37,395 nucleotides of DNA from a virus (taxonomy: Duplodnaviria; Caudoviricetes), in IMG/VR virus record IMGVR_UViG_3300034123_000008, positions 1-37,395 of that record; one strand, 5' to 3'. The first letter of the stretch is position 1. Each line of letters starts with the position of its first letter. Shown in pieces: positions 411 to 37,395 of the stretch. The translations under genes and the position numbers were made by a program. The notes under the pieces are model-generated. The model was given only the letters and a program-made list of their open reading frames with translations. It was not told the origin of the DNA and did not search any database.

Positions 411-1298
411 TTAAGTTTGTGTATTAATCTCGCATATAGCCGCTGGTCTTTTTATGATGGGAACTACAGCTTCCCAAACTTTGCCTTGATAATTCATTGA
501 TGGCAACTGAGTGAGGTATGTGCTTACATCTGCACCGACGCCTAATTCGAAGTTTCCAGGTGAAGTGTCAATTAGCAAAGTGTTGGTTGATGTACCAGCC
601 GCTGCCAAAAGATTGTTTGATACAACAATGCTGCCGGGTCCACCTAAGAGGTCTTCGAGAACTTGGAATGCAAAAGTGTCTGTAGTGCCAACGAGAACAC
701 GAAGTTGACTGTAGAACGTGCTGTTGATAATCATTTTGTAGGGTCCATAGAAGCCGTCTGTTTCAAGTTCCGCGATAGCAGCATTTGTATCTGTTATGTA
801 GTCGCTGCTCCAGTCGCCGCCGTTAACTGTGTTTCTGCCAGTTGCATTTGCGAGACCTTCAATTCCAAGTGCTGGCCATCCTGTGTATTCGCCTGTCAAT
901 ATGAGTTTGTCTTCTTCCTCTGCAATCTGTCGAGCTGCGTTAACTGCGTTAGCTGTGTTTAAGTCTTCGCCACCGTTGCGTCGTGCAAGAACATCTCGCC
1001 AATGAAGTTTATAGTCCTTCGAGATAATTGGCACTTTAACTTCGTGACCGCTGAGATCTACGAAATCCATTGATTCTTCTTCACCAGTCATGCTGATGAG
1101 GGCTTGTCCCATGTCGTTTTCAGTGTAGAAAGTTGTTTTTGTTATGCCTGCGTTGCCTAGTGATCGTGTAGGCATTAAGGTTCTGCCAACAAGCATTGGT
1201 CGAATGGTCTTTGTTATTTGGGTTTCAATTAGGTTTACTTCGTAGTCTGTTAATGTTCCTGTTGCGTTTCCGATTCTATTCATAGAGTTCATAGTCAT
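411..1298 (-). CDS. Major capsid protein, HK97 fold, Family 1 encapsulin/Linocin_M18-like
   Basis: 295 aa; LVGRTLMP, PIISKDYKLHWRDV, DLNTANAVNAARQIAEEEDKLILTG, GFYGPYKMI, PGNFELGVGAD, PIIKRPAAICEI; last gene of the head operon. Confidence 0.9.
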   Translation of the reverse strand: MTMNSMNRIGNATGTLTDYEVNLIETQITKTIRPMLVGRTLMPTRSLGNAGITKTTFYTENDMGQALISMTGEEESMDFVDLSGHEVKVPIISKDYKLHWRDVLARRNGGEDLNTANAVNAARQIAEEEDKLILTGEYTGWPALGIEGLANATGRNTVNGGDWSSDYITDTNAAIAELETDGFYGPYKMIINSTFYSQLRVLVGTTDTFAFQVLEDLLGGPGSIVVSNNLLAAAGTSTNTLLIDTSPGNFELGVGADVSTYLTQLPSMNYQGKVWEAVVPIIKRPAAICEINTQT

Positions 1299-1781: not shown

Positions 1782-2201
1782 CTAAAAGTCGCCTCCCATC
1801 TTTTGGATTTCTTCTCGGCTTTTGCCGTAGAGGTTGCCAACAGTTAAGTTACTGTCGACTGATGCGTTTCCGGCACGAATACTTTTATAGACGCCTGTTG
1901 ATGCAACATTAAAGTTTTTGCCTTTGCTCAATGTTTCTTCAATTACTTGTAGTTGTGAAGGATTCATCTTTAAGAGGTCTGCTTCTTGATATTCACTGGC
2001 TGATTGAATCTTTAGGATGAGGTCTGCTTTCAAATCGTTTTCAATGATGCTGTTTGCTTGTTCAAGTTGCTGTCTTAAAGCGGTGGCTTCTGAGGTTAAT
2101 GAGGTGTTGATGTTTTTGAGTTGAGCATTTTCTAATGCTAATGCGGCGTTTGCTGTTTTGTAGGTGTCGGACGCTATTTCCGTTTTAACATTTTCGGTCA
2201 T
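1782..2201 (-). CDS. Capsid scaffolding protein with C-terminal LTVGNL motif
   Basis: 139 aa, coiled-coil N-half, lies between the maturation protein and decoration/MCP genes. Confidence 0.7.
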   Translation of the reverse strand: MTENVKTEIASDTYKTANAALALENAQLKNINTSLTSEATALRQQLEQANSIIENDLKADLILKIQSASEYQEADLLKMNPSQLQVIEETLSKGKNFNVASTGVYKSIRAGNASVDSNLTVGNLYGKSREEIQKMGGDF

Positions 2202-2307: not shown

Positions 2308-3240
2308 CTAAAAAGATAAGGGATTACGTCTTTGATGCCTTAATGCTTCGATTCTTTGTTGTTCGCCACGTTGCTGCTTCATCTGTAAAAGCTCTTGGTT
2401 GCGTTGTATGAGTTCTTGTATGCTTATAGAGGGTGTTTTAGGTTTAACTTCGGGTGTCTTGATTGGAAGCGGAGTCGTTGCGGGTGTTGTTGGGGGTGTA
2501 GGTATTACGGTGGCAGGTGGGGTCACTGAAACTGAAACATCCACTTTAGGCGCCTCAACTGCTACAGGAACAACATTAGATTCTTGTTTCTTCTGTGAAG
2601 CCGCTGCAAACTGCTTAACTTCTTCACTTGATACGCCTATTCCGCAGTTAGGATAAGTACATCTGCCTTTCCAAACGCCTGTAGCAACGTGGTCGATAAC
2701 GATGTTACGCATCGCCAAATCATAATGTTGCCCATGCCACTCCCCAGGCGTAGGATCTTCACTATAATAGAAGCCAATAGAAACGTCTGCTTTCTGTTTC
2801 TTCTCTTCCCCCGGCGCAACTATTTCGGATGCGCATGCTTGAATGTTATCTAGCCAATCCATCATGTTTCTTTCTTTAAAGATGTCTTTGCTAAATGATA
2901 AGGTGGCGCGTATTCGGTCGCGATCAAAGAAAGGTTTCTCTACAAAGCCAAAGATTTCGTCTTGTGAAGTTACGACTTTGGCGGCTGGGTGTTCTTTAAT
3001 TGTGAGTTTTGCACCGCCTGCTAGTTTAGAGGCTTTAAGTAATTCAGCTCGTGACCAAAGGCATTGTTTGTTTTCGCCTGCGTTGCCAGCGGGAAAAGTA
3101 TAGATGCCTTCCTTAGCTATAACAGCTGATACTTTTAGGCAACATGAAACATCCTCAGACACTTGCATGGGTTCTGAGAAGACAGCGTATTGAGTAGATA
3201 ATTCAGGTTTAACTATATTTTCTTTATTTGTTTCAGTCAT
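2308..3240 (-). CDS. DUF2213-like prohead maturation protein (putative protease)
   Basis: AVIAKEGIY, TIKEHP, VSIGFY, RNIVIDHVA, GRC...CGIG motifs; P/T linker and helical tail. Confidence 0.8.
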   Translation of the reverse strand: MTETNKENIVKPELSTQYAVFSEPMQVSEDVSCCLKVSAVIAKEGIYTFPAGNAGENKQCLWSRAELLKASKLAGGAKLTIKEHPAAKVVTSQDEIFGFVEKPFFDRDRIRATLSFSKDIFKERNMMDWLDNIQACASEIVAPGEEKKQKADVSIGFYYSEDPTPGEWHGQHYDLAMRNIVIDHVATGVWKGRCTYPNCGIGVSSEEVKQFAAASQKKQESNVVPVAVEAPKVDVSVSVTPPATVIPTPPTTPATTPLPIKTPEVKPKTPSISIQELIQRNQELLQMKQQRGEQQRIEALRHQRRNPLSF

Positions 3241-3242
3241 GG

Positions 3243-4103
3243 TTAAACTCTTCTTGATTTATTTAAGTAACTTATTTTTGAAGCATCACTCATAAATTCG
3301 CCTTTACGTTGAGCTTCCATTTTTTTATCAAACAACTTGTTTTTGAAATCTTGATCGAGTAGTCGCTGTTGTTTTTGCTGTTGCATAAGTAAAAACTCAT
3401 CTGTTGTCACTACATACAAGGGTTCTATAGGTGGAGCTACTGGCTGTTTAGGTTGTGTTTTACGTCGTTTTCTGTGACTGCCAAACTGAGGAATATTGTA
3501 TTGCAAAAAAGGAATTTCAGATGGCGACGCAGCATAAGGTAAAACTTGAACCTCATCTACGATTCCATTCAAAGGATAGTCTGGTCTTGCAATATATAAG
3601 CTTCCAGTCCACGCAGGAATTAACTGTACTGTTGTAGCTGAAGATAATATGTTTGTTCCATCAAAATAAATATTAACAGTATTATCTCCCCCACCATAAT
3701 GATGTGTGATAACGATAAAATGTCGGTTTCCATCAAATATTGTTGTCGGCGGTGACTGAGGTGCCGTATCTCCAGAAAAACCCGCATATATCGATCCATC
3801 TGAGAATAATAAGAAATAGTAAGTTGAATCAGTAGGATTTATAAGACCTACAAATCCTGAACTTGGCGCGGTTCCTTTAATCCAACAGCAAAATGTGAAT
3901 TGTGGACATTGCAAAGAAGATGATGCAGGTATGCTAACGTATCCACCATTTACACTGAGTGCGTTTCCATATTTGCCTTGTACCCACGACGGCAACGGTG
4001 AACCAGATAAGGTGCCATCATTGCCGTTTCCACTTGAATCATGCGCTATACTGCCTGAGTCTTCATCAAACCGTAAATGTAATACTGGCGCGTAAACAGA
4101 CAT
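3243..4103 (-). CDS. LamG/concanavalin A-like lectin domain virion protein
   Basis: LRFDEDSGSIAHDSSGNGNDGTL, GKYGNAL, FTFCCWIK, LNGIVDEVQV. Confidence 0.85.
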   Translation of the reverse strand: MSVYAPVLHLRFDEDSGSIAHDSSGNGNDGTLSGSPLPSWVQGKYGNALSVNGGYVSIPASSSLQCPQFTFCCWIKGTAPSSGFVGLINPTDSTYYFLLFSDGSIYAGFSGDTAPQSPPTTIFDGNRHFIVITHHYGGGDNTVNIYFDGTNILSSATTVQLIPAWTGSLYIARPDYPLNGIVDEVQVLPYAASPSEIPFLQYNIPQFGSHRKRRKTQPKQPVAPPIEPLYVVTTDEFLLMQQQKQQRLLDQDFKNKLFDKKMEAQRKGEFMSDASKISYLNKSRRV

Positions 4104-5493: not shown

Positions 5494-5904
5494 TTATTCT
5501 TCCTTTGTTGTTGGTCCTTTTGTCCAATCTGTTCCTATGTTACTCCATAAATCTAAGTTTGATTCAGGTCCCCACTTCTCATCTTCACGTATAAGTAAGC
5601 AGCCGCATGTTCCTTCTTTTCCCCATAAGGTTTTGTGGACGTTTGCATATATGTCGTCGCCGACCCATTCATGATCTGGAAATACTGTTCTAAGTTGGCT
5701 GCCTGTGAAGGTTGAACCGTCAAACATTTCGCAGTATATGCATGATGGTCCTTCTGGTTGATGGTGGGTGTCTAAGTAGAATGTCCATAATGCGTTTACG
5801 CTATACGGGCTTGTATCGCGTAGGTGTTCTGGGATGCGTTGTTTAGCTGCTAACTGCGTTAGGTTTACGAGTGTTAGTAATTTCTGTGATAATATAGCTT
5901 GCAT
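5494..5904 (-). CDS. Short minor head protein, Mu gpF/SPP1 gp7 C-terminal-domain-like
   Basis: CIYCEMFDG...VH...CGCLL motif; directly after portal; start uncertain. Confidence 0.6.
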   Translation of the reverse strand: MQAILSQKLLTLVNLTQLAAKQRIPEHLRDTSPYSVNALWTFYLDTHHQPEGPSCIYCEMFDGSTFTGSQLRTVFPDHEWVGDDIYANVHKTLWGKEGTCGCLLIREDEKWGPESNLDLWSNIGTDWTKGPTTKEE

Positions 5905-7354
5905 CTCCTTTCGCTATTTGTTCCTGTATCTTTTTATCTTCTAAAGGATTGTTGGGCTTAGCGTCAAATGGCGCTTTCCCCTCTTGACCCAATGGCTGCT
6001 TCTTAAGTGGATCAGGATTCAACGGTAGCCCCGTAAGTGGATTCACACCTATTTCAGGTTGTGGACCGTTAGATTTGCCTTTTAAATCGTCCCCGCCCTC
6101 TTCCTTACTTAAATCTGTGCAGTCAGGATCAATCATCTTTCTAATTTCGTTTCGTTTAAAGAACGACCAAAGATAATCGACTTCTTGCGCACGAACTAAA
6201 GCCATCTGCTGCTTAGTCTGTTCATCTAGTTCGAATCCGCCTTTCCAGTTAAAAGTGAAGTCTGTTTCTTGCCCTATCAAGGCTTCTATGATTAAGCGTA
6301 TGCCGTCTTCGTAGCTGGATTGTTCGCCGCTTATCATACTCCAAAGGTTAGAGGTGTCTGTTTGTGAACCTGTTAATGCTCCTGCTTGCACACCCCTAAG
6401 AATAGCTAAGGGTATTCCTGTACCACACGAAATATGCTCCATCGGTGGCAAATAATAATTCATTGGATCAAGAGCATGGCCTTGTAAGCCTTTGAAATCT
6501 AACAGTTGATCTTCATTATGAGCAAAATAAGTACGTGCTGACAGATCCTTAAATGAACCTGACGCAATGAAGTCGTCTATGTCTTTTTTCTCTGCACCTG
6601 TAAATGTAATGTCGGGAAACCCTGAGCCGTATCTATACATTGTTTGGCCCATACCCCACCGAATATTTCTAAGGGTTGTTAAGTCGTCCCAGATAGCATC
6701 TAAAACAGATTTACCCATCCAATCATGATCTATAAGGCGCGTAGCGAAGTGAACCACTCGGCTATAATGTACTTTCATTGAAGCTAATTGCCCTGGGCGA
6801 CTAATCACGTAGTATAAGGGTAAACCGTAGCGTTCACTGTTTGGATCTTCATCTAATTGAGGCACGGATATTTGTGTGGGTCCATACGCTTTAATCTCTA
6901 CAAGTTCCCCGCTTGTTTTAGGTTCTGCAAGCGATTCTGCTGAATCATTAAAGCCAAGTACAATTATTGCCCAACCATACCCACGTTCAAAGATTGCCAT
7001 ACGGGTTAATTCTTGTTTAGCATTAATCTTATCTAGTTGCTTCTGTATGCGTTTATCGAATGCAACGTTGTCTTTTGAGGCGGGTTGTGCGGCTGTTTCT
7101 GTTGGTGCCGCTGAAGGAACACGATAGTTGCTGCCTTCAAGGGTGAACCAGTTGTCAAAGATTGCTTTAGCTATTGAGAATACAGTTCGAAACGCCACGG
7201 GTTCGCGTAGTATGGCAAAGGTGCGTAATGTGTCGTTGATGTCTTCACCATATTCGCCACCGCCTCCTGTTCCACCGCGGGGTATAGTGATGCCTGTACC
7301 TGCTTGAGTAGTAGAAGCTAAACCTACATGCTTAACTGAAACACGCTGAGTCAT
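5843..7354 (-). CDS. Portal protein (DUF1073-like)
   Basis: 503 aa; ERGYGWAII, RYGLPLYY, KVHYSRVVHF, GKSVL, GIPLAILRG; downstream of TerL. Confidence 0.9.
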   Translation of the reverse strand: MTQRVSVKHVGLASTTQAGTGITIPRGGTGGGGEYGEDINDTLRTFAILREPVAFRTVFSIAKAIFDNWFTLEGSNYRVPSAAPTETAAQPASKDNVAFDKRIQKQLDKINAKQELTRMAIFERGYGWAIIVLGFNDSAESLAEPKTSGELVEIKAYGPTQISVPQLDEDPNSERYGLPLYYVISRPGQLASMKVHYSRVVHFATRLIDHDWMGKSVLDAIWDDLTTLRNIRWGMGQTMYRYGSGFPDITFTGAEKKDIDDFIASGSFKDLSARTYFAHNEDQLLDFKGLQGHALDPMNYYLPPMEHISCGTGIPLAILRGVQAGALTGSQTDTSNLWSMISGEQSSYEDGIRLIIEALIGQETDFTFNWKGGFELDEQTKQQMALVRAQEVDYLWSFFKRNEIRKMIDPDCTDLSKEEGGDDLKGKSNGPQPEIGVNPLTGLPLNPDPLKKQPLGQEGKAPFDAKPNNPLEDKKIQEQIAKGDASYIITEITNTRKPNAVSS

Positions 7355-7376: not shown

Positions 7377-7718
7377 CTATCTGATTTTGCCATATAGATC
7401 GCCAGCGGTGAAACGTTCAGACACTTCTTCAACCTTCTCAGTTTTTTTGGGATATTCCATTTCTTCCCTTGCAAGATACCAATTCATAACAGCGTCCATA
7501 AAAGTCATAACTTCTACTTTTTTACCAAGCAAACCTCTTAAAACAGTGCTTTCTTCCTTTGGTTCAGGATTTGCATCTGCCACAATATACTTAGCAATTA
7601 ATGTGGCTTGTTTGTAATTGTTAGTAAACATATTCAACCACGCTGTCAAGGAATCTTCAGTAAAAATATCAAATACTGGTCCCCTTTTTTTTGGAGGGGA
7701 TAATAATTTTTGTGTCAT
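7377..7718 (-). CDS. Hypothetical protein ending in FTAGDLYGKIR (candidate capsid cargo)
   Basis: 113 aa; C-terminus resembles the scaffold's LTVGNLYGK. Confidence 0.65.
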   Translation of the reverse strand: MTQKLLSPPKKRGPVFDIFTEDSLTAWLNMFTNNYKQATLIAKYIVADANPEPKEESTVLRGLLGKKVEVMTFMDAVMNWYLAREEMEYPKKTEKVEEVSERFTAGDLYGKIR

Positions 7719-8190: not shown

Positions 8191-9495
8191 TTAACCGAAA
8201 CTCCAACCGTGAATATCATGCTTATGAACCTGACTAAACGCACCCGATAAAGCATCAACTTGATCATCATGCTCACCAATTGGGAAACCTTCTAATTCAT
8301 CTAGGAATGCATTGTTCCATGTGCCACGTACAAGTTTAATGTTTCCTGCTTCAGCCGCTGACGCAACTGGTGCGGCTCGTTCTGCTTTGGGACCAGTGGT
8401 TTTTAATCCATAGAAGGTTTTGCCTTTCAACACTTCTCGGTTATACCTATCAATTGTATCAACGCCTGATGAACCGGGTTCTTGCTCCATCACAGTTTTA
8501 GCGTCTTTATCAAGTTGTAAATCTGAGGTTTGTTTAATGAGTGCTTCTACTTCTGCTGGGTTGCCACGCATACGCCGAATATCTATGATGTAGTAGACGC
8601 CGTTAACTTCACCTAATAACAGGCCAACTGTATAGTCAGGATCTTTGTTTGTGCTCTTTGGTTTAGTTGCTGCTTTATCCCAGAACCTTATGAGTTTAAC
8701 GTCATGTGGGTAAGCATCTACTACTTGGAACCATTCACGTTGAAAGATTGAGCCACCATGTTTAGCAGTCCAATCGCCCTCAAGATATTGTCGACGTGTT
8801 ATAGGGTCAAGATTGTTGAGTGATTTAATGTAGCTTGTTTGATCGATGTATTCGTTGTCTGTTAGTTTAGCTGATATGAATATGCGGTTGTGTTCGTATC
8901 CTTCAACCATGAATCTTTGTTTAACCCAATCATGCCCAATGCCCCCAGGGTTAGATGCGCATCTCATTCGTAGGGGTACATGGCTGTTCTTAAGCCGCCG
9001 CAACCTCGAAAACAAATACCTGTACTTATCTTCTTCAAACTGTGTAACTTCATCAAATCCGATGCTTTGAAACTCTGCGGATTGGTAACGGTATTTGTCA
9101 ACGTCTGTGTCAAGGTATCCAAACGCAAGTTTAGCACCTGAGGGAAATTCCCAACAGTTTTCTTGTCCTTTCCACGTTGCATCCGTCGGCATCAACCACT
9201 GTTTAGACCTATCCATTAAAGCGCCGGGCAACGCTAAATCACGGAAGCTGCGTCTAAAGATTATTGCTGAGTAACCGGGTACATCGACATATTGCAATGC
9301 ACACATTAAGAGCCAATCTGATTTACCGCCGCCTGCTGCGCCGCCATATAAGACTTCTTCGTTATCTAGTAAAAGAGCCAGTGCTTGTTTAGGGGTTGGT
9401 TTGTGGGGTATGTACTGGTTGAGGAGTACAGTGTTCAAGAAGAGCTGCTTCTTCAAAGAGGCTTTCGTACTGTTTAAGCAAGTCGCTTGTAACAT
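8191..9495 (-). CDS. terL: Terminase large subunit
   Basis: YGGAAGGGKS Walker A, IGFDE Walker B, ASNPGG coupling motif, RFWDKA and HDDQVDA nuclease motifs. Confidence 0.97.
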   Translation of the reverse strand: MLQATCLNSTKASLKKQLFLNTVLLNQYIPHKPTPKQALALLLDNEEVLYGGAAGGGKSDWLLMCALQYVDVPGYSAIIFRRSFRDLALPGALMDRSKQWLMPTDATWKGQENCWEFPSGAKLAFGYLDTDVDKYRYQSAEFQSIGFDEVTQFEEDKYRYLFSRLRRLKNSHVPLRMRCASNPGGIGHDWVKQRFMVEGYEHNRIFISAKLTDNEYIDQTSYIKSLNNLDPITRRQYLEGDWTAKHGGSIFQREWFQVVDAYPHDVKLIRFWDKAATKPKSTNKDPDYTVGLLLGEVNGVYYIIDIRRMRGNPAEVEALIKQTSDLQLDKDAKTVMEQEPGSSGVDTIDRYNREVLKGKTFYGLKTTGPKAERAAPVASAAEAGNIKLVRGTWNNAFLDELEGFPIGEHDDQVDALSGAFSQVHKHDIHGWSFG

Positions 9496-11140: not shown

Positions 11141-11557
11141 CTATGGATGTAAAGTATTCGCGTGATATATCCAGTTGCCTACAGGTGGAACAAAACTAAT
11201 AGATGCTGTGCCTGAGGCGTCTGTTGGTGCTGATCCCATTAAGTTGCCGTTTTGATCATAAAAATCCACGTTGACTCCTGCTAATGCATCGCTAAGTGTT
11301 GTCGTTAAAGTCCATGTTGCTCCCCATGTTACTGTTGAAGGCGAAATAGTTACTTGTGAAAGAGTAGCTTGTGGTACAGGTGTAGGTGTTGGAGTGGCTG
11401 GTGGAGGTGTAGGATTTACGGTTCCAGCTGTGCTATCAGGGCTTCTTATGCCATAAACTGCAACAGCGTAACCAATCAAAGAAAAAGCAGCGATAGCTAC
11501 GCATACTGCGATTAAAGCGTATTTTTGGGTTGAAGATAATTTACTTAAGACATTCAT
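11141..11557 (-). CDS. Membrane-anchored Ig-like domain protein
   Basis: GAGGTGA RBS at 11566-72; N-terminal TM, PT linker, Big-like domain (GVNVDFYD, TDASGTAS). Confidence 0.75.
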   Translation of the reverse strand: MNVLSKLSSTQKYALIAVCVAIAAFSLIGYAVAVYGIRSPDSTAGTVNPTPPPATPTPTPVPQATLSQVTISPSTVTWGATWTLTTTLSDALAGVNVDFYDQNGNLMGSAPTDASGTASISFVPPVGNWIYHANTLHP

Positions 11558-11573
11558 ATTGTTTTTCACCTCT

Positions 11574-12155
11574 CTAAACAACTACTTTCTTTTCTATTGT
11601 AATTATTTGTTTTAATCCATCTGAGCTGGTGAATACTTTGTTTGATGGAATAACCCCGGATATTTGTGATTCAATAGTTTGTGATTGTTTAAACAACTCG
11701 GTTTTTTGTTGTTCAACAGTTTGCTGCATTGACGCATATTTATTTTGTATCTCAGAATACTGTGTGGATAACTGTTCTTTTTCTTTGCTTACTGTGGTGA
11801 ATGCTTCATCTTTCAATTTTGTTGCTGAAGTTAATTCTTCTGTTTGCCCGGTTAATGTTCCTATGGTTTCATCTTTGCCTTTAATCTCTTTTGTTGCCCA
11901 ACTTGATAATGCAGCTTTCTGCTTCTTAATTTGATTATAAGCATAACCAAACGCTGCAGTGCCTGCTAACCCTACACCTGTGGTTCCTACAAGGCCATAA
12001 ACTGTAGAAAACGTAGTTGTGATTTGCGTATGTAAATACGCGTATGCCATGTTGCCATAATACGCGAAGGGATCAATATTTAGATACCAAAGTATAGGAA
12101 ATGCAATCAAAGCTACAACAACAACTACAATTATGAGTTTAATTGCACCATTCAT
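11574..12155 (-). CDS. Membrane protein with C-terminal coiled coil
   Basis: 193 aa, two hydrophobic segments followed by a long heptad region. Confidence 0.75.
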   Translation of the reverse strand: MNGAIKLIIVVVVVALIAFPILWYLNIDPFAYYGNMAYAYLHTQITTTFSTVYGLVGTTGVGLAGTAAFGYAYNQIKKQKAALSSWATKEIKGKDETIGTLTGQTEELTSATKLKDEAFTTVSKEKEQLSTQYSEIQNKYASMQQTVEQQKTELFKQSQTIESQISGVIPSNKVFTSSDGLKQIITIEKKVVV

Positions 12156-12156
12156 T

Positions 12157-12600
12157 TTATCCTGTCCCTTCTAAATTCATGAGGAAACGAGCTTCAATTG
12201 TAAATGCAGAAGCTGCTTTAATTGTATAAGGATTATGGCTGTCAAATTGTGAATCGCCAAACATCCAAGCGTTAAATCTGTATCCAACTGCAGGTATTAC
12301 TTTAAAGGTTAAGGTGTCGCCGTTGGGGCAATTTAATGATTTAGGCAAGTCTGCAGCAGTTAATGTTAATGTTGAGCCTCGGTTCTGGTTGGTTACGGTT
12401 ATTGATTGAACTCCTATCGCTGAATTTACGGTGTAAGTTATTATTGGGGGTGGACCTGGCGTTTCTGCAACGGTTGGTGCAGGTGTTGGAGTGGCATTCA
12501 ATTTTTTAGCAGCATTAGATGCATTACTTGCTGCGGCAGCTATACCGCCGACTAACAATACACCAACGATTATAAGTATAAAATAGAAACGGGGTTTCAT
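12157..12600 (-). CDS. Membrane-anchored InlB B-repeat-like protein
   Basis: MKPRFYFILIIVGV signal/TM, PT linker, PAVGYRFNAW...NPYTI...IEARF; ATGA-coupled. Confidence 0.75.
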   Translation of the reverse strand: MKPRFYFILIIVGVLLVGGIAAAASNASNAAKKLNATPTPAPTVAETPGPPPIITYTVNSAIGVQSITVTNQNRGSTLTLTAADLPKSLNCPNGDTLTFKVIPAVGYRFNAWMFGDSQFDSHNPYTIKAASAFTIEARFLMNLEGTG

Positions 12601-13001
12601 TGCTGTAGCTCCCATTCAGGTGATGGAGGAGAATCAAGCGGTTTCTTAAGTTCAGGCATAGGCGGCATCTTAAAATCATATTTGCCTTCACGTGCATTCT
12701 GCCTAAACGCTTCAAGATCCAATACGTACCGAGCGCGATCTGCTTCCTTTGACAAGTCAAATTGATGTATTACTGTGTGGTTGACTATTCCGACGCGGCC
12801 GTATTCGTCGGGTTCAGATTTTGTTATAACTGTTTTAGCTGTGTAGCAGTTTGCTGCGCCTACACGTTTGAAGGTGCCTATTTGCTGTGCATCCCACATT
12901 GGCGCAAGTTTTTCAGGGCTTAAGATTTCAAGCAGTAGAGGCGATTCATAGGTGACTTCGACGCCGCCTATCATGCCTTTAACAAATTGAGCTGAACGCA
13001 T
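12597..13001 (-). CDS. GAP1-N2-like GTPase-associated protein
   Basis: DEYGRVGIVNHTVI resembles the D-x-x-GR-x-G-x(3)-H signature; adjacent to the GTPase. Confidence 0.55.
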   Translation of the reverse strand: MRSAQFVKGMIGGVEVTYESPLLLEILSPEKLAPMWDAQQIGTFKRVGAANCYTAKTVITKSEPDEYGRVGIVNHTVIHQFDLSKEADRARYVLDLEAFRQNAREGKYDFKMPPMPELKKPLDSPPSPEWELQQ

Positions 13002-13007
13002 ATTGCA

Positions 13008-14099
13008 TCAACTCGCTAAAGCCTGCAGCCAATCTAATACTTTGAAGCTCCAATATTCACTATAATGGATTGCGTTTACGTTGTCTTGCCAATTAGCTGT
13101 ACGATCAAAGATGTCGCGGCGTTTAATTTTAAAGTCGTTTGGATTAGCGGGGTCCCAACATTGGGGTTTACCGTTGACTTTTTCTATTTCAATGAAACTG
13201 GGGAAATATGAGATGTTGTTTAAGCCTAAGCTTGTGATTGCTGCGTATGTGGATGGGTAGAAGGCTTCCATAAACTTCTCCATTGATGCAACACTTATCT
13301 TTGTATCGAGAGGGTTGAATGGTTCACCTGTAATTCTTTGTATTTGTTCAGCTACCGGGGCTAATCCATCCCAAGCAGTCACCACGACGCCCACATGATT
13401 TAAGGGTGGAAAACTGCTATTTTGCCGTTTAAACTTGCAGATGCCTTGAACCATACGTTTAAGGTTAGCGTCACTATAGATGCTCATGCCTGATACATCA
13501 GTGGGTTCTTTCTCTAATTCTATTTCTAAACCTTGTGCTCTAGTTGCTTTAATGATTAATAATATGGCGTTTGATCTGCATACCATTGTGATGGCGCGAT
13601 CCGCTGGAATACGTGCTGCATCTTCTAAGGTGCGTGCTTGATTAACTTTCTCTATCAAGTTAATGAGGTCTTCGCCTGCAAGATCCGCCATGACAGAGTG
13701 AACAGTTTTTTTACTTAAACAGAAGCATTTGCCGCCGGGTAAATATTTAACGTGTGCATATTGAAAAGTGGCGCATGGTTCAACACTGCTTATTCCAAGT
13801 TTACCGGTTTTAGGTGGGAAATGGCCTGCTCGCATAGCTGACTTACTGTTTTCGATGTCTCCTGTGCCTTCATCAATGTTATATGTGAAAGGGTATTCTG
13901 TGCCTCGTGATTTGGTTACTTTACGGTCTGCCGCGATAAGTGTTGCTGCAAGAAAAGCTGATTTGCCGCTACCTTTGGTGCCTATCATTGTTACGCCGCA
14001 TTCAGCCATGCCCGCATCCATTATTTGGCCAACGTTTTGGTTTCTTTGGTTGTTGCTTTCATAGCCAATTAGGTCTTTAGCTGTATCCCAAAAGGGCAT
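13008..14099 (-). CDS. TRAFAC-class GTPase (DO-GTPase2-like)
   Basis: G1 GTKGSGKS, G2 FPPKT, G3 DLAGE, G4 variant TAWD. Confidence 0.85.
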   Translation of the reverse strand: MPFWDTAKDLIGYESNNQRNQNVGQIMDAGMAECGVTMIGTKGSGKSAFLAATLIAADRKVTKSRGTEYPFTYNIDEGTGDIENSKSAMRAGHFPPKTGKLGISSVEPCATFQYAHVKYLPGGKCFCLSKKTVHSVMADLAGEDLINLIEKVNQARTLEDAARIPADRAITMVCRSNAILLIIKATRAQGLEIELEKEPTDVSGMSIYSDANLKRMVQGICKFKRQNSSFPPLNHVGVVVTAWDGLAPVAEQIQRITGEPFNPLDTKISVASMEKFMEAFYPSTYAAITSLGLNNISYFPSFIEIEKVNGKPQCWDPANPNDFKIKRRDIFDRTANWQDNVNAIHYSEYWSFKVLDWLQALAS

Positions 14100-14434
14100 T
14101 AGGTAACCACCGTTTGATCAGCTGATCCGGTTTGGCTTAAGGTTTGTCCTTGTGGCATATAGGTGTTTTGTTGTGTGTTTACTTTGGTTCCTGTGATATA
14201 GGTTTTTATTACCCAGAAGATAAGCACGCCAAGACCTATGTATCCTAATGCTTGCAAGACGCCGATGATGGGTTCTACCGCGCCAAACATTGTGTAGCCA
14301 ACGAAGGCAGCGCCTATGAAGGATAAGTCAATGACTCCGAGAACATGCAGTACAGGTAACGCAATGAGTAAGCCGATTAGCAGAAAGATTATGAGCCAAC
14401 CAGATTTTGATAGTCGACTTTTAAAAGTAGGCAT
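14099..14434 (-). CDS. Multi-pass membrane protein
   Basis: 111 aa, about 3 TM segments, GAGGTGA RBS at 14445-51, stop/start overlap with the GTPase. Confidence 0.8.
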   Translation of the reverse strand: MPTFKSRLSKSGWLIIFLLIGLLIALPVLHVLGVIDLSFIGAAFVGYTMFGAVEPIIGVLQALGYIGLGVLIFWVIKTYITGTKVNTQQNTYMPQGQTLSQTGSADQTVVT

Positions 14435-15592: not shown

Positions 15593-16120
15593 CTATGTTC
15601 TTTTAATTCGAGGTCTGCCAGGTATCGGTACAAGGCGACCATTGTTCTTTAATTTTGATAATTTTGTTACTTGTTGACCAAAAAAGGTTAATGTTTCTTT
15701 ACTCCATTGACGCGGTTCTGTTTTCTTCATTTCTATGAAATAGTCAACGGTTTCTTTGATTATCAATAACTGAGCTGTTTTAATGTGTGAATAGGGCAAA
15801 ATGTCAGCCACTACCCGAGATATATCAGTAAAATTATCGATCCTTAATTCACTTGTATGTGACCAATGCTGTTTTCTGCAAGGTGAATCATTATTGCGGG
15901 TATGGATGTTTCCAGCATTTAATGTTTGATGTAAATAATTGATAATTTCTAAATCAGTGTTGGTAACTATCAAATTTACGGTTGTATAATGAGGGTAAAC
16001 TATGTATCCTTTCTTTTTGGTTAGTTCTGTTCTTGCATGCCAACCTAAGTAAACACATCCTTCTCCATCAAAGAACCCTGCAATATACGCTTTTGTTATT
16101 TCATCCATCTTATTCACCAT
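15593..16120 (-). CDS. LAGLIDADG homing endonuclease family protein
   Basis: AYIAGFFDGEG, NTDLEII, ILPYSHIK motifs. Confidence 0.9.
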   Translation of the reverse strand: MVNKMDEITKAYIAGFFDGEGCVYLGWHARTELTKKKGYIVYPHYTTVNLIVTNTDLEIINYLHQTLNAGNIHTRNNDSPCRKQHWSHTSELRIDNFTDISRVVADILPYSHIKTAQLLIIKETVDYFIEMKKTEPRQWSKETLTFFGQQVTKLSKLKNNGRLVPIPGRPRIKRT

Positions 16121-20796: not shown

Positions 20797-21657
20797 ATGG
20801 AATTAACTTTTGCCTCCATGTTTGCAGGAATAGAAGCCCCACGAATCGCCCTAGAACCACTTGGTTGGAGATGTGTATGGGAAAACGAAATAGACAAAAA
20901 CTGTTGCAAACTATTAAGAAAACATTATGGAGACAAAACACTTGTTGAAGGAGACATTAGAAACGTGGACGCAAAAACTATCCCAAGCCACACCCTTCTC
21001 ATTGCTGGATTTCCTTGTCAAAGTTTCTCAGCAGAAGGTAGTAGGAAGGGTCTTACAGAAAATCGTGGCACGTTATTCTCACATATTGCCCGAATTGCAA
21101 GAATTAAAAGACCTGAGTTTCTACTCTTGGAAAACGTCAAAGGACTCATATCTCATGACTCTGGCAGAACCTTTGCCATTATCCTTCGAACATTGGGGGA
21201 ATTGGGGTATTTACTTGAATGGCAAGTGCTTAACAGCCGACACTTTGGAGTACCCCAACAAAGAGAAAGAGTGTTCATTGTTGGACATCTTAGAAACAAG
21301 CCCTCCAGACTGGTGTTTCCTCAGTTCTTCCCACAACTCATACTTGGAAACAGTAAAGAAGAAAGGTATGAAAACCATTGTGGAAAAACAGTTTCACCAA
21401 AAGGCTTTGCTGGAACAATAACAGCAAACTATGGAAAACTAAGTGGATGTTCAACTAAAGTTATTTCTGAAGATGGGCAAAAAAGGGTCTTATCACCTAT
21501 CAAATGTGAGAGACTACAGGGTTTTCCAGACAACTATACAGAAGGATTCAGCTTTAACAATAGATACCACATGTTAGGGAATAGTATGACAACTAATGTT
21601 ATCAAGTGGCTTGGAATACAAATTATGGCATTAATGCCTTTAGAGGTATCTCAATGA
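20797..21657 (+). CDS. dcm: DNA (cytosine-5) methyltransferase
   Basis: Motifs I FAGI, IV GFPCQ, VI ENV, VIII QQRERVF, IX RLQGFP, X GNS. Confidence 0.95.
   Translation: MELTFASMFAGIEAPRIALEPLGWRCVWENEIDKNCCKLLRKHYGDKTLVEGDIRNVDAKTIPSHTLLIAGFPCQSFSAEGSRKGLTENRGTLFSHIARIARIKRPEFLLLENVKGLISHDSGRTFAIILRTLGELGYLLEWQVLNSRHFGVPQQRERVFIVGHLRNKPSRLVFPQFFPQLILGNSKEERYENHCGKTVSPKGFAGTITANYGKLSGCSTKVISEDGQKRVLSPIKCERLQGFPDNYTEGFSFNNRYHMLGNSMTTNVIKWLGIQIMALMPLEVSQ
20927..21421 (+). CDS. Overlapping +1-frame ORF inside dcm
   Basis: 164 stop-free codons from an ATG; SWKTS, WGNWG, ECSLLDILE. Confidence 0.4.
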   Translation: METKHLLKETLETWTQKLSQATPFSLLDFLVKVSQQKVVGRVLQKIVARYSHILPELQELKDLSFYSWKTSKDSYLMTLAEPLPLSFEHWGNWGIYLNGKCLTADTLEYPNKEKECSLLDILETSPPDWCFLSSSHNSYLETVKKKGMKTIVEKQFHQKALLEQ

Positions 21658-36775: not shown

Positions 36776-37395
36776 TTAAGTCACTTGGAAACAGAAATCA
36801 GGAAACCTAATCTGAGGACACACATGTTTATGCAAAGCAAACTCTTGCACGGCATCCACAACCCCTTCTTGACCATAGAGATAGTCGTGTCCGCCAATAA
36901 AGCCGCCAACCTTAACTAAATCATAGTAAAGTTCTAGGTCTTCTTGCACGAACTCTTTAGAGTGATTACCGTCAATGTAAACAAAATCAAACACCTTATT
37001 CTTTAAGACTGTTTGAGCTGCTTCTGAGCTGGATAAATTCACGAATCTTACACGTTCATCATGTTTTAACGTGTTAAATCTGCTTTTCCCCTCTTTGGTG
37101 TAAGCGTCAATCACACGGTTGCCCTGCTTGTATGCGTTGCCGATGTAGGGGTCAACACAGAACAGTCGATTAATTGATAATTCTTTGAGTAAGTTCTCAG
37201 CGTTCACGCCGAAACCAAACCCTATTTCGCACCCAACCAACTCTCGAGAGCCGCTATGTTCTTTAACGATCTTTGTAAAAGGACGCGGAACCCCATGACT
37301 ATTCGAAACTGCATCATTCACCCACTTATACACATGAGGACTAAGCGCATGCATAACAGCGAGACTGGTTTTTAATCTGATGTTGCGGGTGCGGT
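36776..37395 (-). CDS. Class I SAM-dependent methyltransferase (Methyltransf_24-like); probably starts at position 46 across the junction
   Basis: EIGFGFG, VDPY, DFVYIDGNH, GGHDY; frame stays open through the right repeat copy. Confidence 0.85.
   Translation of the reverse strand, partial: RTRNIRLKTSLAVMHALSPHVYKWVNDAVSNSHGVPRPFTKIVKEHSGSRELVGCEIGFGFGVNAENLLKELSINRLFCVDPYIGNAYKQGNRVIDAYTKEGKSRFNTLKHDERVRFVNLSSSEAAQTVLKNKVFDFVYIDGNHSKEFVQEDLELYYDLVKVGGFIGGHDYLYGQEGVVDAVQEFALHKHVCPQIRFPDFCFQVT
37363..37395. repeat. Terminal direct repeat, right copy
   Basis: Matches 1-33 with one mismatch. Confidence 0.95.

Follow-up and report, generated by a model that had tools for sequence, protein, structure and literature searches.

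An encapsulin cargo-peptide-like tail on a likely scaffolding protein of a Caudoviricetes virus suggests that cargo loading re-uses viral scaffold docking

Introduction

The locus described here raises the question of whether the short peptide that targets enzymes to encapsulins and the tail by which a viral scaffold binds its capsid might be one and the same device. Encapsulins are widely held to derive from HK97-fold viruses; their N-terminal helix forms the peptide pocket, and a TVGSL peptide is present on the ferredoxins of Firmicutes IMEF encapsulin systems (PMC8346489). In Myxococcus xanthus EncA, as described in PMC10402063, the peptide site is made up of the N-terminal helix and the P-domain; the side chains in contact are those of R28, R34, D38, D213 and D243, and the L, V and L of RLTVGSL are each received by a hydrophobic pocket. 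As to viral scaffolds, their C-termini contact the N-arm helix in 80alpha, SaPI1 and P22, and the SaPI1 protein CpmB competes with the 80alpha scaffold for this helix (PMC12749128).

In a recent procapsid model (PMC13669383, published in 2026), the internal protein, cargo or scaffold, is proposed to be the switch that makes an HK97 shell an enzyme cage or a virus; the likeness that it describes between cargo and the P22 and phi29 scaffolds is a helical hairpin only, at 4–18% identity, and its main text contains neither “peptide” nor “C-terminal”. In the accessible text of the respective papers, “scaffold” occurs 0 times in PMC8346489, “encapsulin” occurs 0 times in PMC10541130, which deals with Bathyarchaeia viruses, and a binding element shared by cargo and scaffold is named neither in PMC8346489 nor in PMC13669383. 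In the openly accessible literature that was searched, no report of a peptide shared between scaffolds and cargo was found.

Results

The head genes and the probable host of the virus

The window (i.e., the whole stretch of DNA analyzed, 37,395 bases) is the IMG/VR record of an uncultured Caudoviricetes virus, whose features of interest are listed in Table 1. On the minus strand, the protease gene is followed by a 139-aa ORF, by a 158-aa ORF and by the capsid gene. The search of prokaryote genomes with the capsid profile retrieved 8 loci, and since all of them (8/8) belong to Bathyarchaeia assemblies, the host of this virus is likely a Bathyarchaeia archaeon.

Table 1. Features of the viral window discussed in the text (all genes on the minus strand)
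Feature	Position	Strand	Basis or remark
Virus record (Caudoviricetes)	IMGVR_UViG_3300034123_000008, 37,395 bases		IMG/VR
Terminase large subunit	8191..9495	(-)	Pfam/PHROG-type profile matches
Orphan 113-aa protein ending FTAGDLYGKIR	7377..7718	(-)	Motif 7386-7412; directly upstream of the portal gene
Portal protein	5843..7354	(-)	Profile matches
Head maturation protease (DUF2213)	2308..3240	(-)	Pro-rich linker and conserved C-terminal helix
Protease C-terminal helix ELIQRNQELLQMK	about 2377-2415	(-)	Consensus E/D-L-I-x-R-S-x-x-L-L, family-wide
Likely scaffolding protein, 139 aa	1782..2201	(-)	Position and shape
Second conserved box YKSIRAG, residues 105-111	1869..1889	(-)	In the scaffold linker
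Docking-tag motif LTVGNLYGK, residues 119-127	1821..1847	(-)	Core LTVGNL = 1830-1847
Likely capsid decoration protein, 158 aa	1305..1781	(-)	Position and weak likeness to an annotated phage gene
Major capsid protein, 295 aa, EncA-like HK97 fold	411..1298	(-)	Sequence and fold

The idea that the locus might be an encapsulin operon is ruled out by the portal, terminase and protease genes. The neighbors of the capsid gene are the decoration-like, scaffold-like and protease genes, with no enzyme cargo gene of the ferritin-like or DyP kind beside the shell gene, and its product is a viral capsid and not an encapsulin. As to the 158-aa ORF, the PHROG label “head scaffolding protein” was discarded as weak (E 2.5e-6); the ORF resembles, again weakly (E 3e-4, 26%), the equivalently placed gene of a cultured phage, which is annotated “capsid stabilizing protein”. 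In relatives, the decoration-like gene occurs in tandem, with three copies at L029:6456-7957 and two at L107:785-1768. The tail helix of the protease is likely a second docking element of the head interior, for which we regard it as a candidate.

Other genes of the window are worth recording. A gene for a LamG-domain protein (3243-4103, minus strand) is inserted between the portal and protease genes, and a Methyltransf_24 methyltransferase gene (36776-37354, minus strand), also found in the relatives L002, L003 and L067, adjoins the capsid region. A free-standing LAGLIDADG homing endonuclease is encoded at 15593-16120 (minus strand). The 363-aa protein encoded at 13008-14099 (minus strand) has a P-loop-like GTKGSGKS motif, is without a Pfam match and sits among membrane and Ig-like proteins (11141-14434), a cluster that is possibly a GTPase-based egress module. 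Lastly, a 164-aa ORF (20927-21421, plus strand) overlaps, in another frame, the gene for a C5 DNA methyltransferase (20797-21657, plus strand); such other-frame ORFs are known for some methyltransferase genes.

The likely scaffolding protein and its tail motif

The translation of the minus strand places LTVGNLYGK exactly where it was predicted to be in the 139-aa ORF, with 15 residues from the core LTVGNL to the stop codon. The protein had been described as a coiled coil followed by a flexible linker and a tail: the long helix, the linker and the tail were recovered in the AlphaFold2 model, which consists of a long helix (6-68), two shorter ones (73-77 and 81-94) that make up a small bundle, a disordered stretch (95-128) and a terminal helix (129-134), while the coiled coil itself we only infer. 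The comparison of the scaffold profile with the PDB returned generic coiled coils only; neither Pfam nor PHROG gave matches for this ORF, and Foldseek found no match to its model at E 0.001 or better. The protein is elongated and helical and its gene lies between those of the maturation protease and the capsid, as in Caudoviricetes scaffolds; on the basis of gene position and shape, it is likely the prohead scaffolding protein.

In order to define the conservation of the motif, 128 capsid loci were surveyed; in 88 of these a decoration gene preceded by an ORF was present, from which 69 distinct C-termini (the one of the window included) were obtained; the scaffold position between the protease and decoration genes was constant in these 88 of the 128 loci, i.e., those with both. 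The strict motif, defined as T[VIL]G[NSD][LIM], was found 6-15 residues from the C-terminal end in 44 of the 69 distinct scaffold-position proteins and was kept at scaffold identities down to about 20-21%. Among the 36 database homologs, 32 carry it in the last 30 residues, and two of the four that do not look frameshifted or chimeric; the expectation that the motif would be conserved in homologs is thus borne out. The very LTVGSL sequence is present in 8/69 scaffolds and RLTVGSL, which is the EncC core, in 4/69. The strict pattern is absent in the remaining 25/69, which show either near variants (TAGNL, TVGCL, TVGSK, TVPNK) or distant ones (IDLY, LHSLY, KLNNMF).

The majority residue has a mean share of 0.65 in the motif; the corresponding values for body, linker and tail are 0.41, 0.31 and 0.28. 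Some leucines of the body are conserved like the motif (L84, 0.84; L76, 0.81). Given the local composition, LTVG[NS]L is expected by chance at a rate of 2.8e-7 per position, or 7e-6 per last 25 residues of one protein, and the looser strict pattern is found in 9 of 6,985 windows of 30 aa taken from the interior of non-scaffold genes; a chance origin of the scaffold motif is excluded. The core LTVGNL differs from LTVGSL by a single S to N change, and the three hydrophobic anchors are retained; the modelling reported in PMC7925596, which indicates the GSL positions as important, bears on this change. Targeting peptides of the TVGSL type have one or two basic residues immediately behind the core; here the core is followed by YG and then by K127 and R129, and a K or R lies within six residues of the motif in 29 of the 44 strict motifs. 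The YKSIRAG box lies 10-20 residues before the tag; the pattern [YFV]K[SNP][IV][RHL] is present in 30/69 scaffolds, and variants such as YKNIHF, NSVRFG and KSILF, together with KNVRSAG in the L129 clade, were observed.

The capsid protein and the peptide groove

The earlier statement that an encapsulin-like shell stands beside the scaffold is upheld by sequence and by fold. The capsid matches Linocin_M18 (PF04454) with 102 bits (cut-off 24.3), and its best sequence match in the PDB is M. xanthus EncA (E 1.7e-29). The AlphaFold2 model (pLDDT 86, residues 1-11 at low confidence) has an N-terminal helix (18-35) instead of an extended N-arm, and the Foldseek search with this model placed EncA (8vjo, TM 0.77) at the top, phage capsids appearing from rank 38 onwards.

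Assuming, from the PDB alignment, that the EncA numbers of PMC10402063 are offset by one from the full sequence, residues R28, R34, D38, D213 and D243 correspond to R33, R39, P43, G220 and D257 of the capsid. Three of the five peptide-contact side chains (R33, R39, D257) are therefore kept; the columns of the two that are not (D38 and D213) vary among encapsulins too. One of the contacts in EncA is supplied by an adjacent subunit. In the 64 family capsids and 25 encapsulins compared, R39 is found in 100% of both, D257 in 83% and 100%, and R or K33 in 73% and 76%, respectively. D257 is present in 43/43 capsids whose scaffold has T[VILA]G[NSDC] vs. 9/20 of those whose scaffold does not; when corrected for kinship, about three of six independent pairs differ, all in the same direction, and the association with the motif is not significant by independent pairs either for D257 (median p 0.25) or for R33 (median p 0.5). 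Moreover, the non-pocket positions 115 and 119 of the capsid associate with the motif equally strongly. Co-variation of motif and pocket, which is lost after this correction, was not retained as support.

A second tagged protein in the window

The 113-aa orphan ORF overlaps the upstream gene by ATGA and ends 22 bases before the portal gene. It scored 21.5 with the scaffold-motif profile, a score of 12 being reached by 1 of 6,985 internal windows and by 13 of 1,394 other C-termini; these 13 are ten truncated or unassigned scaffolds, the orphan itself and proteins of L029 (16.6) and L023 (12.6). The 226-aa protein of L029, which ends in LTVPSQ, was discounted, as the scaffold of its virus uses IDLY. 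Apart from the scaffold itself, no sequence in the window matches better than the orphan, and none of 60 shuffled windows reaches its score. Among the 13,133 reading frames of all loci, 59 have the motif in the last 25 residues and 57 of them match the scaffold body; the two that do not are the orphan and one L005 protein. No homologs of the orphan or of its upstream neighbor were found by database searches and by tblastn on nine loci, and since the orphan is without homologs, tagged passengers are rare in this virus family. On sequence grounds, this protein is a candidate second user of the tag, either as a passenger or as an assembly modulator. Its tag DNA matches that of the scaffold at 24/33 bases with many third-position changes, which rules out a recent DNA duplication as its source; it may have arisen by an old duplication or by convergence.

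Other viral lineages and cellular encapsulins

The presence of a related tail was also observed in viruses of other capsid lineages. The loci L129 and L139 represent a provirus with terminase, portal and protease genes, whose capsid is still more EncA-like than that of the window and whose scaffold ends in RLTVGCLYHKKEQ. Ends of the LTVG[CD]L[YF]HK type were found in 7/7 viral loci examined of the L129 clade, two further loci being without upstream DNA; the L129 scaffold counterpart matches Phage_scaffold at E 0.017 only, which is under the cut-off. In a third lineage, the P0067 clade (L151-L156), the scaffold ends in [LF]T[VIA]G[AKR]W in 6/6 loci, and the tag variant carries a Trp (LTVGAWD...W). 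At L157:1236-2237 a protease is fused to the scaffold, which ends in STVATGIYNPK..W; the L158 scaffold shows no clear motif. The motif is absent in 3/3 outgroup cultured phages with more distant capsids, the distant capsid clade being sampled through three single proteins.

The provirus head module at L139:7164-18065 (G037) comprises terminase, portal, protease, scaffold, decoration and a very EncA-like capsid; no tail genes are evident directly after the capsid gene in L139 and in the related L142-L148. An L139-type provirus could be a tail-less or decaying element en route to domestication.

As to cellular shells, Linocin_M18 matches were found in 10 of 301 genomes of the Bathyarchaeia-level class. 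In a genome of this class, L128:1131-2280 is a cellular operon in which a ferritin-like cargo ending in PTIGDLKEE is encoded beside an encapsulin; its TIGDL is the TIGDL of the scaffolds of L002 and L091, and its shell groups with T=1 shells in the tree.

Capsid trees

Phylogenetic trees were constructed with subsets picked from 150 capsid-profile hits by their likeness to the query, the cellular identity of the rows being named by the sources for some clusters. In the 37-row tree, the EncA-type encapsulins form one clade (98/97), which is joined to the third lineage (97/94) and next to the L129 clade (98/95), the capsid family of the window lying outside. An AU test, with the group chosen once a first FastTree had been inspected, rejects keeping the 14 motif-virus rows together vs. 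the 16 encapsulin and outgroup rows (p 0.032). In the 33-row tree, where T=1 shells and cultured outgroups were added and nine rows dropped, encapsulins again form one clade (100/99), and the nesting nodes go down to 89/80 and 86/89. In both trees the capsid of the window falls outside the encapsulin clade. We suggest, with moderate support, that Family 1 encapsulins branch among or beside motif-bearing viral capsids; since the nesting nodes weaken in the 33-row tree, a viral origin of the groove is only moderately favored.

A headless element carrying the tag

When degenerate tag patterns were compared with IMG/VR, ten matches were obtained, corresponding to one known scaffold (L166), one 244-aa protein, ORF244 (L168), and eight internal or non-coding frames. 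ORF244 (L176:7367-8101, record G306) ends DLTVGNLYGKSP..EEIKAM and also has the protease tail helix of the family (E 4.6e-6 among 186 segments). It belongs to a 10.1-kb part of G306 (L176:329-10438, G306:C1), which has a GC content of 41% vs. about 32% beyond it and is bounded by a repeated fiber-like gene. This part contains tail-region genes 39-66% identical to those of L001-type viruses, a methyltransferase-like gene and, by position and look, a small-terminase-like gene; it gave no match to the capsid profile and none to portal or large terminase. In run X1 its depth is about 180-270-fold in most bins vs. 45 beyond, and in run X3, from another study, one contig joins position 10,438 back to 329. 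We take the 10.1-kb part to be a probable circular satellite that encodes a scaffold mimic; the IMG/VR record seems to combine two elements linked by the fiber-like gene that they share. The comparison of runs X1-X4 with the head genes of the window yielded nothing beyond fragments of 36-56 bases from related capsid and protease genes, which do not identify a helper; the element is a candidate capsid-hijacking satellite.

Discussion

The data reported in this work are in agreement with the original prediction that cargo loading and scaffold binding are the same interaction, as judged from the conservation of the motif, the EncA-type capsid, the three kept contacts out of five and the trees, the docking itself being argued by homology. 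By the same comparison, the scaffold tail probably functions in the manner of a Family 1 targeting peptide. We consider it probable that the scaffold tail docks in the groove that encapsulins use for their cargo, and that encapsulins inherited this groove from viruses of this kind. According to this idea, the scaffold would dimerise via its long helix and, through its flexible tails, fill the three hydrophobic pockets of the N-helix/P-domain groove with L119, V121 and L124, the K/R residues near the motif facing acidic capsid residues such as D257; the capsid subunits tethered in this way would be cross-linked, or bridged, into a prohead, from which the DUF2213 protease and DNA packaging would then free the scaffold. 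Family 1 encapsulins would derive from such viral capsids with the groove retained, and host enzymes that acquired a scaffold-like tail would have turned into cargo. The same tag would make the 113-aa orphan a passenger or an assembly modulator.

The closest known system is that of M. xanthus, in which EncA binds the peptides PEKRLTVGSLRR of EncB/EncC (PDB 7S2T, 7S4Q, 8TK7; PMC10402063). The two shells are alike in fold and sequence, the equivalents of R28, R34 and D243 are kept, and in both cases a C-terminal LTVGxL core follows a flexible linker and the tag-bearing gene lies upstream of the shell gene. However, the tagged protein is here a long-helix scaffold and there an enzyme; the shell described here is viral, being encoded together with portal, terminase, protease and decoration genes; S is replaced by N; YGK and a short helix follow the core where EncA peptides have RR; D38 and D213 are not kept; and the scaffold would have to leave the shell again. 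The Firmicutes IMEF encapsulins have a similar TVG[SND]L core, that of Quasibacillus being a C-terminal peptide of the TVGSL type, and their shells (6NJ8, 9FY6) rank high among the matches of the capsid in both sequence and fold, but they are cellular iron-storage compartments without viral genes, unlike the virus studied here. The likeness to 80alpha, P22 and SaPI1 is of another kind and concerns a separate scaffold whose C-terminus lies on the N-terminal helix of the inner capsid face; the segments involved in 80alpha, P22 and SaPI1 CpmB are helices or helix-turn-helix units, and these capsids are far from encapsulins and share no peptide with encapsulin cargo.

Three other explanations have to be weighed. 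The same groove might have been used in the opposite direction, that is, viruses might have taken over a host encapsulin shell together with the cargo tail, which is now the tail of the scaffold. Transitions in both directions are argued for in PMC13669383, the root of our trees rests on DUF6260-like capsids and the deep nodes of the 33-row tree are weak; against this stand the encapsulins, which with the T=1 shells included form a single clade with at least three lineages of motif-bearing viruses around it (with the AU result given above), and the full portal-protease-decoration head module, which these viruses retain in common with the outgroup phages. Thus, we consider this direction unlikely. 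It could also be imagined that the tail binds some other partner, such as the portal, the C-terminal helix of the protease, the scaffold itself or another surface of the capsid, its likeness to cargo peptides being a coincidence. The motif is merely six residues long and of a short hydrophobic-turn type, the YKSIRAG box and the conserved protease tail helix show that further interfaces exist, and the 25 scaffolds departing from the strict pattern would also fit; yet the exact LTVGSL and RLTVGSL sequences, with the low chance rate per protein end reported above, occur in the viruses with the most EncA-like capsids, and the outgroup phages lack the motif, which makes this reading quite unlikely.

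Finally, the motif might be mainly a cleavage or recognition site of the DUF2213 protease and no capsid anchor at all. It does lie in a stretch that is disordered in the model, next to the protease gene, and L157 provides a fusion of protease and scaffold; but with the site 6-15 residues from the end, little of the protein would be lost by cleavage; encapsulins, which have no protease, bind the same motif non-covalently (PMC10402063), and the motif is also C-terminal on the unrelated orphan, so that we regard this as very improbable.

Returning to docking in the cargo groove, common descent is best supported for the groove itself; the peptides of cargo enzymes could have re-evolved or recombined repeatedly; they need not descend from scaffold tails, as a groove that is kept would reselect the same peptide. 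The initial idea of a tail that targets scaffolds to the capsid has to be widened, in that the scaffold carries the tag as proposed but non-scaffold proteins (the orphan of the window and ORF244 of G306) carry it too. The tag looks portable, since both the orphan and the headless 10-kb element have it, and ORF244 recalls SaPI1 CpmB, a satellite competitor for the scaffold site. We can speculate, as a tentative possibility to which we give somewhat less than even weight, that the tag is a portable address code of archaeal-virus capsids, ancestral to encapsulin cargo loading, by which the scaffold builds the prohead, the orphan is loaded, and the satellite copies both tag and protease helix in order to hijack or resize the capsid of a helper.

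In conclusion, the analysis suggests viral scaffold docking as the mechanism that encapsulins re-use for cargo loading. The shared tag represents a link at the sequence level that is missing from the model of PMC13669383, as set out in its main text, and an EncC-type peptide on the scaffold of a capsid close to EncA offers a concrete origin for cargo loading, testable by cross-loading. For nanocage engineering, it would also make available new and larger shells compatible with encapsulins, besides natural tag variants (S/N/D/C and L/W), and it would explain why Bathyarchaeia proviruses turn up in encapsulin searches.
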